Shown here: in pieces, positions 7,823 through 15,762 of the stretch | Position numbering within the stretch: the stretch's first letter is position 1 | Layout of the letters: each line of letters opens with the position of its first letter | Notes under the pieces: model-generated | What the model was told of the DNA's origin: nothing | Database searches by the model: none | Seen by the model: the letters and a program-made list of their open reading frames with translations, nothing else | Translations under genes and position numbers: made by a program | DNA from: Thainema sp. | Lineage (GTDB): Bacteria; Cyanobacteriota; Cyanobacteriia; Phormidesmidales; Phormidesmidaceae | Direction of reading: 5' to 3' | Assembly: GCA_052168235.1 (NCBI GenBank) | Contig: JBQLZK010000105.1 | Location: forward strand, 1-15,881 | DNA length: 15,881 nt

Positions 7823-8056
7823 TCATACAGCAGAAACAAGCAGGGTAGTGCCGCGACGCCCCAGAACTTGAACGGATGTTTCTGGATAGACATAGAGCTG
7901 TTCATTCGGATCAGCAACCTGAGCTGACCAGTAAGTAGCGCGCCAGTACACTCGGCCTGGACGGTGTGGTGAGATCGCAGTAATCACTACAGCCAAATCA
8001 GACGTATCAACTTCACGTAACCACTGATTGGGCTGGGGTTCAAAAAATGAAGACAT
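7823..8056 (-). CDS. Stand-alone NfeD-like C-terminal OB-fold protein (77 aa)
   Basis: AVVITAISPHRPGRVYWRATYWSAQ...VQVLGRRGTTLLV matches the NfeD C-terminal pattern (GRV...W.A...V.V....G.TL.V). An AGGAGG RBS lies at 8068-8073 on the minus strand. Confidence 0.85.
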   Translation of the reverse strand: MSSFFEPQPNQWLREVDTSDLAVVITAISPHRPGRVYWRATYWSAQVADPNEQLYVYPETSVQVLGRRGTTLLVSAV

Positions 8057-8169
8057 TGTTTAAGTTGCCTCCTCAGTGACTGGCGCGCACTAATCTGCAA
8101 TCAAAGCCCTACATTCAGCCGTGTACCTAGTCATACGTAAGCTGATCTGTAAAAAAAGTAGGCATTTTT

Positions 8170-8198
8170 TTGACTTAATAAGGGAAAATACGTATTAT
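8170..8198 (+). promoter_or_regulatory. Sigma70-type promoter for the plus-strand genes
   Basis: TTGACT (8170-8175), a 17-nt spacer, then TATTAT (8193-8198). A7 (8151-8157) and T7 (8165-8171) tracts upstream resemble an UP element. The palindrome AATACGTATT (8187-8196) overlaps the -10 box. Confidence 0.6.
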
Positions 8199-8320
8199 CG
8201 AGTACGTGTATGTAGCATTGTGTGTTTCCTTCTTATTGGTTTCTTTGTTCCTTGTGTCCCAGAATATGCGGAGTCAATAAAGTCATAAACTAACGAATCC
8301 GTATCAGCATAAGGAAAAGC

Positions 8321-11816: not shown

Positions 11817-11910
11817 AACCAAGAATATAATCCTTTAATAAAGAATATTCCTGATCAGAAAAATGTATTGATTCAAATTATCATTTTTGATATTGGTTGG
11901 ATTATAAGCC

Positions 11911-14900
11911 ATGAAGCCGCCCATTAATCAAATATATGAATATCAGGTTGGAGGCTGCCTTACCTATGATGCTTCCAGCTATATTGAACGTGAAGCAGAT
12001 AATATCTTAATTCGGCAGCTTTCTGCCGGTGAATTTTGTTACATATTTAATTCGCGCCAAATGGGTAAATCAAGCTTGCGCGTTCGGACAATGTCTAAAC
12101 TTCGAAATTACAATAATAAATGTACTTCCATCGATATTTCCGAATTTTGCAGCGCTGATTCTACTAAACTAAATTGGTATGCAGGTATTACAAACAAATT
12201 GAGTCGAAACTTAGGCTTAAATCATTTTTTCGATTTTCGCCAGTTTTGGAATAATGATAATTGCTTTTCCCCTTTACAGAAGTTAGCACAGTTTATTGAT
12301 GAGATTTTGCTAAATCATATTCATCAGCCTATTATAATTTTTTTTGATGAAGTTGATAGTGTCCTAAGCCTAGATTTCTCGACCGATGAGTTTTTTGCTT
12401 ACATTCGGAGTTGTTACAATAAACGTGCTGAAGATTCTCGTTATAAGCGATTAATATTTTGCTTGTTAGGAGTCATTACTCCTTCTGATCTCATTCAAGA
12501 TAAGCAACGAACTCCGTTCAATATTGGTAGAGCTATTCCATTAAGCGGATTGCAGTTTGAGCAAGCTAAACCGCTTGCGAATGGTTTGGTAGAATTTGCC
12601 CAACAGCCTGAAGTCTTGTTGCAAGAAATCTTACATTGGACAGCTGGACAGCCCTTTTTGACACAAAAGCTTTGCCGTCTCATTTGCGAATGCCAAGCAT
12701 TTGTTCAATCTGGAGATGAGACTGCCTACATAGAAAAACTTGTTCATAGTCATGTCATTACAAACTGGGAATCTCAAGACGAACCACCGCATTTTCGGAC
12801 GATTCGAGATCGTCTGCTACGAGATGAATCTAAAGCCGCTCGTGTACTAAGCTTGTACCAGCAACTTTTAGATGGTGCTGATGTCCCCATAAATGATTCT
12901 GCTGAACAACTAGAACTCCGTTTATCAGGGTTAGTTTGCTGTCAGACGGGTTTTCTCCGTCTACATAATCCTATTTACGCCGCTATTTTTAATATACACT
13001 GGACACAAGTCACTCTAGCGAACCTACGCCCCTATGCCAGCGCGATTTCAGCTTGGACAGAATCTGATTGTCAAGATGAATCTTGTTTATTACAGAGTGA
13101 TGCACTTGATACAGCATTGACATGGTCAACTCATAAGAGCCTAAGCCCAATTGATTATCAATTCCTTTCTGCTAGCCAAGATTTGAACAATCGTAAAATC
13201 CAAGCAGCTTTAGTTGCAGAGAAACAAGCTAACCAGATTTTGCATCGTGCTCATTGGCGAGCTCGGCGAATCATCGTAGGTACAGTTGCTCTAACTGTTA
13301 TAGCCGTCGGTTTAAGTGGAATTGGAGTTGCGATTGTAACAGCTGAAGCCCGAGGCAAAGTTACAGAAGCACAAGGCGAAGTCCGTGAACTACGCTCCGA
13401 AGCTCAATCTCAGCTGGAGCAACAGAAGAAACTAGAAAAAGATAGACAGAATTTGCAGGCTGAAATCGCAAGCCTACAGCAACTTAAAAGTAAAGGACAG
13501 AAAGAGCTAGATGCTGCAAGATCAGAGATGCAGAGTCTCAAGCAAAACGCTCAAAGCGCTGAAGTAATTGCTCATCAGTTACAATCCCAAATAGTTCAAG
13601 CTGAAGTTAGACAAAAAGAATTACAACAAGATATCTTAAATACAGAATCAGTTCTTAATGTAGTTGAGCGCCATAGTAGGCTTATACAGCTAGAGCAAAA
13701 CAGTGAACAGCTTGATCAGATTCAATCACTCTTTCAGGTATTAGCGATCACTCAAGATCTCAAAAGACATAGCCCAGATACTGAAGGGCTTTTCGAGGCT
13801 CTTTGGCAAGGATACAGATTTATAGAATCGTTACTTAGCCACTTTCAAGCTGTCAATCAGTTTGATACTCAGCAAGCAGAGATTTTTGCGATTGATATTG
13901 CCTCTAGCAGTCAACAAATCATTACGGGTGATGCTGATGGTGTTATTGCCTTGTGGAGTATAAATGGCCACTTATTACGGACATGGAAGGCCGATACAGA
14001 ACATATTAATGACTTACAGTTTTCTCCTGATGAACAGACCATTGTTGCTGTTGGCTATTCTGGTAAAGTTCAACTTTGGTCACTGCAAGGTGAAAAACAA
14101 TTTGAGTGGACAAAGTTTGATGGTGAGATCTATGCAACTAAGATTTTACCAAATAGCCAAAGCCTAGTCATTGCGGGAGAAAAGGGGAAAGTCGGTATTT
14201 TAGCGTTTGATCAAAATCGCTATATTTCTTTAAGCAATTCAGATAAGCATCGTAATCTTGTTATCGATATCGCTATATCACCCACTGGTGACATGATTGC
14301 AACTGGAGATATTGATGGCAAGGTTATTCTGTGGAACCGTAATGGTGATCAGCTAGCTAAATTTGAGCAGCTAGAACGTGTTTTGAGTCTTGCTTTTAGT
14401 CCAGATGGCAAACAGTTACTAATAGGTGGTGGAGATGGCGCAAGAGTTTGGTCAATTAGCGGGTCAGCTAAGATTAATGATGTAAATCACCCTGAAAGGG
14501 GGCGATACCGAGCCTTGCAGGTTGCTTTTAGCAATGATGGCAATTTCCTAATAACCGCTGGCGATCGAACAATTCAAATTTGGGATCGAACAACTTACAC
14601 TTTGGTCAATGAATTAGATCAGCATCAAGGCGCAGTCAATGCGTTAGCTCTCTTCTCTAACAACGATCATTTTGTCTCCGCTGGAGACGATGGGATGGTT
14701 AGGCTCTGGGATCTAGCTGCGTTGAATAATTCCCGTATTCAAGTGCAAGCATCTAGTAGTGAGGTTTTGCCAGACGCTGCTATTCGTTTAGATCCACAGA
14801 ATCGAATTATTGCAACGGCAGCAAAAGGCCACTTAGCATTTGGAAATCAACGCAATTTGACAGCTTTTGATTCAGATGTAGTAGAGCAAGGCGAAAACTC

Positions 14901-15762
14901 AACCATCATTGATATCGATATCAGCCCTAATCAGCAGCGTATAGCGACTATTAGTTTAGATGAGATTAGGGGTACCTTTGTACAAATCCGAGATCGCTCA
15001 GATGGCAAGATTCTCAGATCATGGCAACCCAATCAAGGGCGAATCGCTGAAGCTCGTTTTAGTCCAGATAATCAACACATTGCAACTGCTGGCTTCAACG
15101 GAATTGAAGTTTACGATACATCGTCTGGTAGGCTAGTGAGCCGTTTCTCAACACCAGACCGAATGGCAACTAGCTTAGTGTTTAGCCCTAATAATGAGCA
15201 AATCATAGTTGTTTTCGATGATGGCCAACTGGAATGGTGGAGATGGCAAGATCAGACTCGATTGCGCGAACTTAAGGCTCACGATGGTTGGGCTGTCACT
15301 ACAGATATGAGTCCTGACGGTCAACTACTCGCAACATCTGGAGAAGATGGTCAGATCAAAATTTGGAGCCAGTCCGGTGTAAAGCTTGCAACAGTCTCAG
15401 AGAATAGCCATGTAGGAATTGTCCGTGCTGTGCAGTTCAGTCCGAATGGCAACATGCTAGCTACCGCAGGAGATGACGGCTATATCAAAATTTGGTGGAT
15501 ACAGAACGGCGATGACAGATTAGACGTACGTCTAATGCAAGAATTTTCGCTACGCCAGGGTGTGAAAGGAATTGACTTTAGTGCAGACGGTCGCCAGTTA
15601 GCTTCTATCACTGATGCTGGGGAAGTAACTCTATGGCAAATTCCTGATGCTCCAGATTTAGATAGGGCTGTTGCTACGGCTTGTAGCCGTTTACGCTTTT
15701 ATCTCCAAACTCATCCAGCGGAGCAAGACAAATTAACGATTTGCGCTGATACACCTCGGTAG
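11911..15762 (+). CDS. AAA_35 NTPase - transmembrane helix - coiled coil - about 14 WD40 repeats
   Basis: YQVGG...YIEREAD, Walker A NSRQMGKSS (K53), Walker B IIFFDEVD (D146), RTPFNIG, WTAGQPFLTQKLC and NWESQDEPPHFRTIRDRLL. TM segment IIVGTVALTVIAVGLSGIGVAIV (aa 454-476) is followed by Q/E/K heptads. 14 WD40-like units (FSPDG...ATxGxDGxIKIW) were counted by eye. Confidence 0.93.
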   Translation: MKPPINQIYEYQVGGCLTYDASSYIEREADNILIRQLSAGEFCYIFNSRQMGKSSLRVRTMSKLRNYNNKCTSIDISEFCSADSTKLNWYAGITNKLSRNLGLNHFFDFRQFWNNDNCFSPLQKLAQFIDEILLNHIHQPIIIFFDEVDSVLSLDFSTDEFFAYIRSCYNKRAEDSRYKRLIFCLLGVITPSDLIQDKQRTPFNIGRAIPLSGLQFEQAKPLANGLVEFAQQPEVLLQEILHWTAGQPFLTQKLCRLICECQAFVQSGDETAYIEKLVHSHVITNWESQDEPPHFRTIRDRLLRDESKAARVLSLYQQLLDGADVPINDSAEQLELRLSGLVCCQTGFLRLHNPIYAAIFNIHWTQVTLANLRPYASAISAWTESDCQDESCLLQSDALDTALTWSTHKSLSPIDYQFLSASQDLNNRKIQAALVAEKQANQILHRAHWRARRIIVGTVALTVIAVGLSGIGVAIVTAEARGKVTEAQGEVRELRSEAQSQLEQQKKLEKDRQNLQAEIASLQQLKSKGQKELDAARSEMQSLKQNAQSAEVIAHQLQSQIVQAEVRQKELQQDILNTESVLNVVERHSRLIQLEQNSEQLDQIQSLFQVLAITQDLKRHSPDTEGLFEALWQGYRFIESLLSHFQAVNQFDTQQAEIFAIDIASSSQQIITGDADGVIALWSINGHLLRTWKADTEHINDLQFSPDEQTIVAVGYSGKVQLWSLQGEKQFEWTKFDGEIYATKILPNSQSLVIAGEKGKVGILAFDQNRYISLSNSDKHRNLVIDIAISPTGDMIATGDIDGKVILWNRNGDQLAKFEQLERVLSLAFSPDGKQLLIGGGDGARVWSISGSAKINDVNHPERGRYRALQVAFSNDGNFLITAGDRTIQIWDRTTYTLVNELDQHQGAVNALALFSNNDHFVSAGDDGMVRLWDLAALNNSRIQVQASSSEVLPDAAIRLDPQNRIIATAAKGHLAFGNQRNLTAFDSDVVEQGENSTIIDIDISPNQQRIATISLDEIRGTFVQIRDRSDGKILRSWQPNQGRIAEARFSPDNQHIATAGFNGIEVYDTSSGRLVSRFSTPDRMATSLVFSPNNEQIIVVFDDGQLEWWRWQDQTRLRELKAHDGWAVTTDMSPDGQLLATSGEDGQIKIWSQSGVKLATVSENSHVGIVRAVQFSPNGNMLATAGDDGYIKIWWIQNGDDRLDVRLMQEFSLRQGVKGIDFSADGRQLASITDAGEVTLWQIPDAPDLDRAVATACSRLRFYLQTHPAEQDKLTICADTPR

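Follow-up and report, generated by a model that had tools for sequence, protein, structure and literature searches.

Two adjacent AAA_35 NTPase genes of the cyanobacterium Thainema sp. as a candidate split STAND-like switch

Organization of the Locus

In this work, we analyzed a stretch of DNA of 15,881 nucleotides (nt) from the cyanobacterium Thainema sp. (hereafter, the window), corresponding to the whole of contig C105 (JBQLZK010000105.1) of an assembly of 7.54 Mb in 205 contigs (GCA_052168235.1). We focused on two co-oriented genes, here called A and B, each coding for a protein that embeds an NTPase domain of the Pfam family AAA_35 (PF14516), and on a third gene lying between them, whose product carries a TPS domain. 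The features of the three open reading frames (ORFs), including their helix-turn-helix (HTH), TIR-like and transmembrane (TM) parts, are the following:

8170 to 8198, + strand: promoter-like site upstream of gene A (TTGACT, 17 nt, TATTAT), a match to the consensus alone
8355 to 10223, + strand: gene A, an ORF of 622 amino acids (aa), putative output subunit (HTH, TIR-like domain, type-A AAA_35)
8355 to 8660, + strand: LuxR/NarL-type HTH of A, residues 1-102 (model and structure matches)
8661 to 9224, + strand: degenerate TIR-like domain and linker of A, residues 103-290 (homology over residues 150-290)
9222 to 10208, + strand: type-A AAA_35 NTPase, with nucleotide-binding domain, helical domain and winged helix (Pfam and model)
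10287 to 11816, + strand: TPS-domain gene, an ORF of 509 aa with a TTG start, between A and B
11911 to 15762, + strand: gene B, an ORF of 1283 aa, putative receptor subunit (type-B AAA_35, TM helix, coiled coil, two WD40 propellers)
11911 to 13000, + strand: type-B AAA_35 NTPase module of B (PF14516, Walker A)
13282 to 13350, + strand: single TM helix of B, residues ~458-480 (Kyte-Doolittle 2.32)
13351 to 13866, + strand: coiled-coil-like linker of B, residues ~481-652 (weak SMC/Rad50 coil matches and coiled-coil Pfam families)
13867 to 15642, + strand: 14 WD40 repeats (7 + 7) of B, residues 653-1244 (self-trained repeat hidden Markov model, HMM)

The TPS gene starts 63 nt after gene A and ends 94 nt before gene B, no terminator-like site was detected between the three genes, and the contig ends 119 nt past gene B. 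Promoter-like sites in the region are not above the number expected by chance (12 vs. 16.9 in shuffled sequences). The GC content is 0.47 in gene A, 0.40 in the TPS gene and 0.42 in gene B (0.385 in its N-terminal module), vs. 0.50 in the genome; another pair of the same genome, on contig C61, is comparably AT-rich (0.35-0.44). An initial annotation of the window had described A and B as paralogous, co-oriented AAA_35 genes sharing the same Walker A motif, and this description holds, since Pfam recognizes the family in both proteins and the two motifs are APRQMGKTS (A) and NSRQMGKSS (B).

Domain Structure of the Protein Encoded by Gene A

The AAA_35 domain of A spans residues 290-618 (E 2.8e-140, 467.3 bits, with a curated cut-off of 27 bits) and positions 2-330 of the 331 of the profile. 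Its model, obtained with a predicted local distance difference test (pLDDT) score of 92.3, consists of a P-loop core, a helical domain and a winged helix, that is, a STAND/ORC-like fold. Foldseek returned matches with a probability of 1.00 (E from 7.6e-12 to 3e-6); the fold matches comprise the archaeal ATPases 2qen and 2fna, the STAND protein 6mfv and ORC/Cdc6, as well as Apaf-1, CED-4, the plant NLRs NRC, Roq1 and RPP1, Avs3, Avs4 and 8bob, an entry on the negative regulation of the maltose system that we take to be MalT. On the basis of these matches, the label "STAND-like" is justified for this protein.

The first 290 residues were modelled separately with AlphaFold (24 sequences, mean pLDDT 74.7). 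A helical domain modelled with confidence occupies residues 1-100 (pLDDT 84-98 over residues 18-101), and it is here that the initial annotation had placed its HTH; the fold agrees with this proposal, whereas no Pfam HTH matched residues 1-290 even at E <= 10. The model was superimposed on NarL (1je8) and DosR (1zlk) with a VIA-align Z of 6.9 and a root-mean-square deviation of 2.2 Å over 64-65 residues, a moderate Z for a match spanning 64 of the 66 residues of the first DNA-binding domain and all 65 of the second. The DNA-binding domain of ComA was retrieved by Foldseek with a probability of 0.95 (no match of the N-terminal model reached E <= 0.001), and most structure rows for residues 1-105 correspond to LuxR/FixJ or sigma-70 region 4 domains. 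An exhaustive HMMER search with residues 1-290 found 182 relatives, 150 of which were listed, while a word-index search found only 2. About 120 of the 150 listed relatives match residues 1-100, and they include both small stand-alone proteins and N-termini of AAA_35 proteins, many of each; about 30 match residues 150-290, the aligned part being Pfam TIR_2 (E from 1e-10 to 1e-5). The homologue P0140, which consists of GerE (E 3e-9), TIR_2 and AAA_35, aligns with residues 34-290 of A, and residues ~150-290 also align with TIR_2-bearing paralogues of the same genome.

The TIR domain claimed in the initial annotation appears, on closer inspection, to be degenerate. Neither PF13676 nor PF01582 matched residues 1-290 or 103-290 at E <= 10; the pLDDT is below 50 over residues 103-147 and about 80 over residues 150-260, where generic three-layer alpha/beta folds only were found (Z 5.3-6.1 for residues 115-255). 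With respect to the paralogues, the C-terminal half of the domain is well kept, and the N-terminal half is divergent and bears a deletion of ~9 residues, which in our reading of the fold falls where the BB-loop region would lie. Weak Foldseek rows pointed to TIR-APAZ (SPARTA) with probabilities of 0.30-0.33, and no TIR structure was present among the VIA-wide rows except the Cat1 entry 9mud (Z 5.4), presumably a CARF-TIR protein; the model is poor in this region. A working TIR effector in A is not supported by these data, and we read the protein as a LuxR-type HTH followed by a degenerate TIR-like domain and by AAA_35. As stated in the initial annotation, A has no TM helix: its sole hydrophobic window (residues 161-179, hydrophobicity 1.63) was considered as a TM candidate and rejected, because in the model it corresponds to a beta strand within the TIR-like domain.

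In the public annotation, gene A is shorter (P0001, 454 aa). We prefer the 622-aa reading because P0002 has an N-terminus that shares 60% identity with residues 1-104 (E 3.3e-32), and the public call is probably truncated.

Domain Structure of the Protein Encoded by Gene B

In B, the AAA_35 match is shorter and weaker (residues 17-266, E 2e-25, 89.8 bits), and it stops at position 251 of the profile (positions 6-251 of 331), so that the lid and the winged-helix part are divergent; the GKSS of the Walker A motif corresponds to residues 52-55. The TM helix, the coiled coil and the 14 WD40 repeats of the initial annotation were all recovered, and the repeats are also matched by Pfam WD40 (E 8.7e-64) and by beta-propeller families.

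The orientation of the protein in the membrane was evaluated on WD40-type B proteins exceeding 800 aa, 70 in number. One TM helix lies between the NTPase and the propellers in 57 of them, and the other 13 have none; in this genome, all three WD40-type B proteins have a TM helix at this place. Lysine and arginine residues flanking the helix are more abundant on the N-terminal side (mean 4.7, vs. 2.2 on the C-terminal one; N side higher in 47 out of 55), where B exhibits the basic stretch HRAHWRARR. Since the basic residues lie on the side of the NTPase, the positive-inside rule suggests a cytoplasmic NTPase and propellers placed outside, and an extracytoplasmic WD40 sensor is plausible. The term "periplasmic", adopted in the initial annotation for this receptor, is to be taken as an inference from this rule rather than as an observation.

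Distribution and Organization of AAA_35 Genes

The comparative analysis of AAA_35 genes indicates that the family consists of two types, A carrying outputs and B carrying sensors, which represent two distinct clades and conserved neighbours. The genome of Thainema sp. contains 18 AAA_35 matches, corresponding to 8 strong type A genes (one of which appears as two matches) and 9 weak type B matches, and a type B gene is located directly downstream, on the same strand, of each of the 8 type A genes. Of the 8 pairs, only the one studied here is interrupted by another gene. It is worth mentioning that one type A gene (G000:C13:119195-120670) shows two AAA_35 matches (profile positions 1-247 and 249-330) in a single ORF of 491 aa, which suggests an insertion inside the module.

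We then considered 61 genomes of the phylum. All but two of the 21 genomes belonging to the same class, that is 19 with Thainema sp. included, have AAA_35 domains above the cut-off, with up to 26 matches per relative, and none of the 40 genomes of the other classes does. The survey gave 209 matches, 150 of which were listed, and the pairing counts are therefore lower bounds: among the listed matches, at least 41 of the 79 type A genes have a type B gene within 5 kb, and at least 47 of the 67 type B genes have a type A gene within the same distance. The nearest B of those 41 type A genes is downstream on the same strand in 27 cases, upstream in 8 and on the opposite strand in 6.

A wider search, carried out with a profile of the B module against species-representative genomes, retrieved at least 604 stretches, and 78 loci, nearly all from filamentous cyanobacteria, were kept for analysis. 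When HMMs of the two clades were built from the A and B modules of this genome, every classified ORF scored 321-547 bits with the model of its own type vs. 42-129 bits with that of the other. The neighbourhood survey called for by the initial annotation revealed a conserved A/B linkage, both types being present in 64 of the 78 loci. A type A gene lies directly upstream, on the same strand, of 59 out of 91 B genes, and the gap between nearest A-to-B pairs is <= 203 nt in 57 cases out of 80, many of which overlap; since the gap exceeds 280 nt in the remaining 23, insertions between A and B are not rare. Most loci (55) show the order AB; in 13, several of them at contig ends, B stands alone, and longer arrays (for example, ABB, ABBBB and ABBBAB) were also seen. 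Three loci (L048, L053 and L084) show one A gene followed by four B genes, and 11 of these 12 B genes are of the TM-WD40 type, the last one being a short B without WD40. This organization suggests several alternative receptors for one output subunit.

Single-chain forms embedding both modules exist as rare fusions only. A B-A fusion, one ORF of 738-763 aa in which both Walker A motifs are present, was found in four genomes (L152:12758-15040, L153:2295-4586, L154:2845-5061 and L155:3286-5541), and the opposite A-B arrangement occurs in P0041, a protein of 1409 aa carrying trypsin, TIR, A and B. Both clades preserve their nucleotide-binding motifs: over 41 sequences of each, the G-K-S of Walker A is invariant, and so is a Walker B-like acidic motif (LD in A, DE in B). 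Taken together, the clades, the conserved adjacency and the fusions lend good comparative support to the proposal of the initial annotation that sensor and effector are split over two ATPases. The prediction of a complex between the NTPase of A (338 aa) and the cytoplasmic part of B (450 aa) with 2 ATP, based on a 41-row alignment per chain and on runs without controls, gave scores on both sides of the mark of 0.32 (0.31, 0.42 and 0.08), which count neither for nor against the proposal.

As for the genes hosted between A and B at other loci, the gaps of L100, L094 and L065 contain pairs of ORFs that, from their sequence, we presume to be toxin-antitoxin-like, and a recurrent protein of ~208 aa is encoded in the gaps of five loci (L132, L104, L128, L089 and L100). 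The A-B gap, then, also collects passenger genes.

Output and Sensor Repertoires

In the genome of Thainema sp., the AAA_35 module of type A proteins is C-terminal and is preceded by caspase and TIR, TIR, CHAT and TIR, or a weak HTH, three of the proteins having no extra Pfam domain. The module of type B proteins is N-terminal and precedes WD40 repeats (in three proteins), three GAF domains, or 7TMR-HDED/7TM/HD; in a single type B protein AAA_35 is C-terminal, behind dCache-HAMP-PAS. The N-termini of 64 type A proteins scanned across the 78 loci are distributed as follows:

CHAT alone: 12
TIR alone: 6
sigma-70-r4 or GerE HTH plus TIR: 5
TIR behind an unassigned stretch of ~100 aa: 3
trypsin with or without TIR: 5
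caspase or CHAT plus TIR: 2
protein kinase: 5
cyclase plus TIR: 1
short N-terminus of 105-156 aa (Pfam HTH in three, no match in the rest): ~25

The sensors of the type B proteins in the same loci are:

WD40: 52
CHASE2, flanked by predicted TM helices: 8
Peripla_BP_6 behind a TM helix: 4
TPR: 5
CHAT, trypsin, GUN4 and NACHT: single cases

CHASE2 and Peripla_BP_6 are known extracytoplasmic sensor domains. Each of the eight type A genes with HTH-TIR (or with a TIR behind an unassigned N-terminus) found in the 78 loci is followed by a WD40-type B gene, and a TM helix is present in seven of these eight B proteins, the eighth being cut by a contig end. Because this association holds in all eight cases, the architecture studied here represents a recurrent subtype.

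The TPS Gene Between A and B

The domain assignment and the position of the TPS gene agree with the initial annotation (PF05860, E 2.5e-37, 129.6 bits, residues 49-243; TIGR01901, E 2e-22, 78.9 bits), whereas the signal peptide was judged by eye only, from an N-terminus that resembles one. The public call of the gene, P0152, is 500 aa long, and an ATG nine codons downstream of the TTG would fit it. No ortholog of the protein was found, and a tblastn search for related loci also gave no relatives. With its best relatives, encoded by ORFs of 800-2900 aa even within the genus, it shares ~50% identity, confined to the TPS domain; residues 290-509 have no homologue at comparable lengths either in the genome or in a set of 5.8 billion proteins. 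TPS genes are common in these organisms: this genome has 15 of them, and of 18 relatives scanned one has none and the other 17 have 4-29 each. Three genes for TpsB of the ShlB family are located on contigs C54, C4 and C50, and none on C105 up to its end.

Concerning the relationship between TPS genes and AAA_35 pairs, no TPS gene was detected near any of the 52 WD40-type B genes of the 78 loci. TPS genes occur in five of these loci (L087, L099, L131, L133 and L136), all with a CHASE2-type B gene, that is, in 5 of the 8 CHASE2 loci vs. none of the 70 others (Fisher p = 2.7e-6). Two further CHASE2 pairs with TPS genes, L058 (which also has a TpsB gene) and L057 (which also has a CHAT-TPR gene), were found via their TPS genes and were left out of the test. 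A link between TPS genes and A/B pairs thus appears to exist for CHASE2 sensors and not for WD40 sensors, while the overall co-localization of TPS and AAA_35 genes is, as a rough estimate, at about the chance level.

A different situation was observed in four of the eight HTH-TIR/WD40 loci, belonging to three independent lineages, whose A-B gap harbors a small gene coding for 134-198 aa (L116:9180-9584, L121:5282-5686, L076:9467-9892 and L082:9316-9912). The proteins have a hydrophobic N-terminus and share a domain of ~95 residues with 36-58% identity between lineages; one of them shows a weak transthyretin-like Pfam match (E 0.0065). They are not homologous to the TPS protein and have no homologue in this genome.

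We also considered the possibility that the TPS gene is a remnant of the TpsA gene found at the same position in a sister species, and rejected it, the identity being just 42% over 111 residues. Most likely, the TPS gene is a passenger that entered the space between A and B in this lineage only; we consider it rather unlikely that it forms a genuine third part of the A/B module. The suggestion that its product is the ligand of the WD40 propellers is not supported, given the missing ortholog and the absence of TPS genes at the 52 WD40-type B genes.

The Divergent NfeD-GT4-RTX Genes

The left part of the window is occupied by a group of genes on the opposite strand:

186 to 6383, - strand: RTX-repeat protein, an ORF of 2065 aa (50 HemolysinCabind stretches in Pfam)
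6446 to 7663, - strand: GT4 glycosyltransferase (Glyco_trans_4_3, E 3.7e-72)
7823 to 8056, - strand: NfeD-like OB-fold ORF of 77 aa, divergent from gene A (PF01957, E 2.7e-4)
8057 to 8354: divergent intergenic region between nfeD and gene A, 298 nt

The initial annotation had recognized this group, and the ORFs, the GT4 enzyme and the RTX repeats are as described there, whereas the NfeD-like ORF scores 21.5 bits, below the PF01957 cut-off of 29.1 bits. A relative of it in genome G014 reaches 30.5 bits; a tblastn search for related loci with the NfeD-like protein gave no relatives.

The same annotation had proposed that A and B regulate the three genes. A genome of the same genus (G061, contig C52, locus L186) was aligned with the window, and the nucleotide identity is 90% over 3.6 kb for RTX, 89% for GT4 and 72% for the NfeD-like ORF; the alignment stops by window position 8073 and nothing beyond it aligned. 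At the position of A, TPS and B, that genome carries a TpsB gene (574 aa), a gene for an LGFP-repeat protein (947 aa) and a TpsA-like gene (at least 1402 aa). Since the block is conserved there without A, TPS and B, synteny breaks off in the nfeD/A intergenic region, with exoprotein genes beside the breakpoint in both species, and the proposed regulation finds no support. Furthermore, a homologue of GT4 or of the RTX N-terminus is present in none of the 78 related loci and an NfeD-like ORF in only one, so that the co-occurrence expected from the initial annotation was not found, TPS genes accompanying only B genes of the CHASE2 type. Around the other 7 pairs of the genome, none of the TPS, NfeD, GT4 or RTX genes was present among the five neighbouring ORFs scanned, which correspond to an FtsH-type protease, a Na/H exchanger, a radical SAM protein and a GDSL lipase. 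The conservation of the block without the pair and its absence from related loci indicate that NfeD-GT4-RTX is a neighbour and not part of the system; as far as can be judged from these sequence comparisons, the block appears to be unrelated to the A/B pair.

Two cases of proximity between NfeD-like and AAA_35 genes were nevertheless recorded: an NfeD-like gene (L187:6040-6366) is divergent beside a GerE-TIR-AAA_35 gene in G014:C87, and in L103 an NfeD-like gene (10193, - strand) lies ~0.9 kb upstream, on the opposite strand, of a GerE-TIR-AAA_35 gene. This adjacency was not seen in the other loci compared, 27 with TIR-AAA_35 and 28 with NfeD-like genes.

Discussion

The data reported above lead us to propose, with moderate confidence, that the locus is one copy of a widespread and uncharacterised cyanobacterial two-gene system, which may be described as a split STAND-like switch, with B as the receptor, A as the output subunit and a nucleotide-dependent association between the two. 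The steps that we infer, from the topology and the hetero-oligomer to the direction of signalling and the output, would be the following. The type-B AAA_35 NTPase would reside in the cytoplasm, and the TM helix and the coiled coil would carry the two seven-bladed WD40 propellers across the membrane, into the periplasm or the thylakoid lumen, where they might capture a ligand. The signal would be transmitted through the TM helix and the coiled coil to the NTPase of B, whose module would then associate with that of A in a nucleotide-dependent manner, as in NAIP/NLRC4 or in sensor/helper NLR pairs, and this would bring the N-terminal domains of A together. The output of this copy would most likely be DNA binding or transcription control, with the TIR-like domain serving as an assembly surface rather than as an NADase.

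Several points weigh against this proposal. The association between A and B is a prediction from sequence comparisons, and a strict ortholog of either protein was not found in 25 relatives (maximum identities ~57% and ~52%, respectively), so that the role of this particular copy is beyond a synteny check. A TM helix is not obligatory for the AAA_35 pair family, as the 13 TM-less proteins in the sample of 70 WD40-type B proteins testify, and propellers can also work in the cytoplasm. Gene B may have its own promoter: three promoter-like sites are located at 11692-11780, within the last 125 nt of the TPS gene, and the best one (TTGAGA, 16 nt, TATCAT) has 10 out of 12 matches. A 1.5-kb gene between A and B is atypical in AAA_35 pairs, and the low GC content common to the TPS gene and to B could reflect their joint arrival. 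Lastly, the caspase/CHAT, TIR and trypsin repertoire of the family points to cell death or conflict more than to plain regulation, and the SELVTEE stretch of A keeps a glutamate at the catalytic position by motif spacing (in comparison with AbTir and TcpB), a residue that we assume to be the catalytic one of TIR domains; an enzymatic activity of the TIR-like domain is therefore possible.

These last observations introduce a different interpretation of the same two subunits, according to which the propellers would detect an invader or a damage of the envelope (for example, phage adsorption or the exoprotein of a competitor) and the TIR-like domain of A would fire as an NADase or signal producer, the cell being arrested or killed. 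Such a conflict, immune or cell-death role would account for the typical conflict effectors at the type A N-termini of the family (caspase/CHAT, TIR_2, trypsin, kinase), for the many paralogues (8 pairs here and up to 26 matches in a relative), for the absence of orthologs of A and B even within the genus, for a GC content below the genome average, for the presence of up to four B genes behind one A, for the glutamate kept by motif spacing, and for a fold closest to NLR, Avs and Apaf-1, among others. However, we regard it as unlikely for this locus. PADLOC-DB 2.0 gave no defence-system match for A (a weak CARF3, E 1.2e-3) and nothing for the TPS protein, and its matches on B are a generic repeat match over WD40 and weak LmuB coil matches; the TIR-like domain fails Pfam at E <= 10 and its N-terminal half is modelled as disordered; about one third of the type A proteins have a short N-terminus of 105-156 aa, an HTH where identifiable; many B sensors are of the small-molecule or environmental kind (GAF, PAS, dCache, CHASE2, Peripla_BP_6, 7TMR-HDED); and phage proteins inside the cell would be invisible to an extracytoplasmic sensor.

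Less probable still is the full circuit put forward in the initial annotation, in which the TPS protein, or an envelope signal linked to it, would be sensed by the WD40 propellers and the A/B pair would regulate nfeD-GT4-RTX and hence surface glycosylation and export. The block is syntenic in G061, where A, TPS and B are missing, GT4 or RTX homologues occur in 0 and an NfeD-like ORF in 1 of the 78 loci, none of these genes was among the five neighbours scanned at the other seven pairs, and the NfeD adjacency was unseen in the 27 and 28 further loci. The TPS gene itself is co-oriented, at a distance of 63 nt from A and 94 nt from B and with terminator-like sites in neither gap, and TPS genes are significantly tied to CHASE2-type pairs (5/8 vs. 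0/70); yet they are abundant and co-localize with AAA_35 genes roughly at the chance level, none was found in the loci of the 52 WD40-type B genes, and the protein of this locus has no ortholog, an orphan C-terminus and no TpsB on its contig. The small signal-peptide protein genes that fill the A-B gap in 4 of the 8 HTH-TIR/WD40 loci, the NfeD-like genes near GerE-TIR-AAA_35 genes in G014:C87 and L103, and the 298-nt divergent region common to nfeD and to a gene A endowed with a DNA-binding domain would fit the circuit, but unrelated genes (the toxin-antitoxin-like ORFs) are also hosted in A-B gaps elsewhere. Equally improbable, in our opinion, is that A and B are mere tandem paralogues acting as independent NTPases, their adjacency being a relic of duplication. 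The intact Walker motifs of both, the promoter-like sites preceding B and the occurrence of B without A in 14 of the 78 loci (several at contig ends) might be explained in this way; against it stand the old and well-separated clades (321-547 vs. 42-129 bits), a consistent division of labour with outputs on A and sensors on B, the conserved A-then-B order with operon-type spacing, the fusions in both orders, and the fact that A has no sensor and B no output domain.

The literature searches carried out found no published description of AAA_35 (PF14516) pairs, and keyword searches combining CHASE2, CHAT and filamentous hemagglutinin, or using orthocaspase, did not reveal any description of A/B pairs either. 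Term searches inside two eLife papers and the 2026 Nature survey of STAND proteins (PMC7159879, PMC13581612 and PMC8195603) brought up neither AAA_35 nor pairs of this kind. The closest published analogue is the two-gene nSTAND2 operon, a computational prediction of Kaur, Iyer, Burroughs and Aravind (eLife 2021, PMC8195603). In it, a STAND gene with an active NTPase precedes an nSTAND2 gene that is inactive and carries TPR and HEPN or GT4; all the operons in the examined part of its supplementary file 6 are proteobacterial. The two systems have in common two adjacent STAND-type NTPase genes, a proposed hetero-multimer, and variable domains fused to constant NTPase cores. They differ in that the nSTAND2 subunit carrying TPR and the effector has eroded NTP-binding motifs, whereas both A and B keep Walker A and B; in that the output is here on A and the sensor on B; in that many sensors of the A/B pairs are predicted to be extracytoplasmic; and in that the A/B pairs are Pfam AAA_35 and cyanobacterial, a distinction drawn from the published description of that system.

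Similarities with better known systems also exist. The order of an N-terminal output, a central NTPase and a C-terminal repeat sensor recalls the MalT/LAL regulators, Avs and bNACHT, which, however, are single cytoplasmic polypeptides; here there are two polypeptides, each with its NTPase, and a membrane would separate NTPase and sensor. In NAIP/NLRC4 and in the plant sensor/helper NLRs (NRC-dependent), a sensor NTPase activates a paralogous output NTPase, and several sensors may serve one helper. The A/B pairs resemble them in the proposed division between sensor and output NTPase, in the number of B genes (up to four) per A gene and in the STAND-type fold, but paired NLRs are eukaryotic, cytosolic and experimentally proven, while the A/B pairs are known from sequence, with a sensor predicted to be extracytoplasmic and, in this copy, an HTH as output. 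PknD consists of a kinase, a TM helix and a beta-propeller, and PknB of a kinase, a TM helix and PASTA domains; in B, too, one TM helix would join a large catalytic domain in the cytoplasm to a propeller or repeat sensor beyond the membrane, but the cytoplasmic module of B is an NTPase switch instead of a kinase and its output resides on a second protein. The TPS protein, in turn, is similar to TpsA proteins of the FhaB, ShlA and CdiA class in its N-terminal TPS domain with an NPxG-type motif and in its signal-peptide-like N-terminus, and differs from them in its size (509 aa), in its orphan C-terminus and in the absence of an adjacent TpsB gene.

It is tempting to extend the split-switch proposal to a broader, and in our view rather speculative and unlikely, scenario, in which the A/B pairs would be modular outside-in receptors of multicellular cyanobacteria, with exported proteins as co-receptors or as self/non-self ligands. 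One A protein (with HTH, TIR, caspase/CHAT, trypsin, kinase or cyclase) would be served by 1-4 interchangeable membrane B receptors sensing through WD40, CHASE2 or periplasmic-binding-protein domains, and the exported partners would be the TPS exoprotein at this locus, TPS proteins in the pairs with a CHASE2-type B, and the small transthyretin-like proteins in the sigma-70-r4 HTH-TIR subtype. The recognition of surface proteins might in this way be coupled to transcription or to cell death, for instance in kin recognition or in a filament-level defence, and the whole would represent a bacterial counterpart of the sensor/helper NLR networks with the sensor outside the cytoplasm.

Conclusions

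The wider circuit, with a TPS ligand and with RTX and GT4 targets, is not to be assumed for this locus. The known STAND/NLR switches are single proteins that reside in the cytosol and respond to ligands inside the cell, and the AAA_35 pairs are unusual in dividing sensing and output over two paralogous NTPases and, for what can be predicted of their topology, in placing the sensor of most members across a membrane. These pairs are very common in filamentous cyanobacteria, with at least 604 stretches retrieved and 8 pairs in the genome of Thainema sp. alone. If the two subunits do co-assemble, they would represent a new bacterial route by which an extracytoplasmic signal may reach transcription or cell-death effectors, and a prokaryotic parallel to the sensor/helper NLR pairs.

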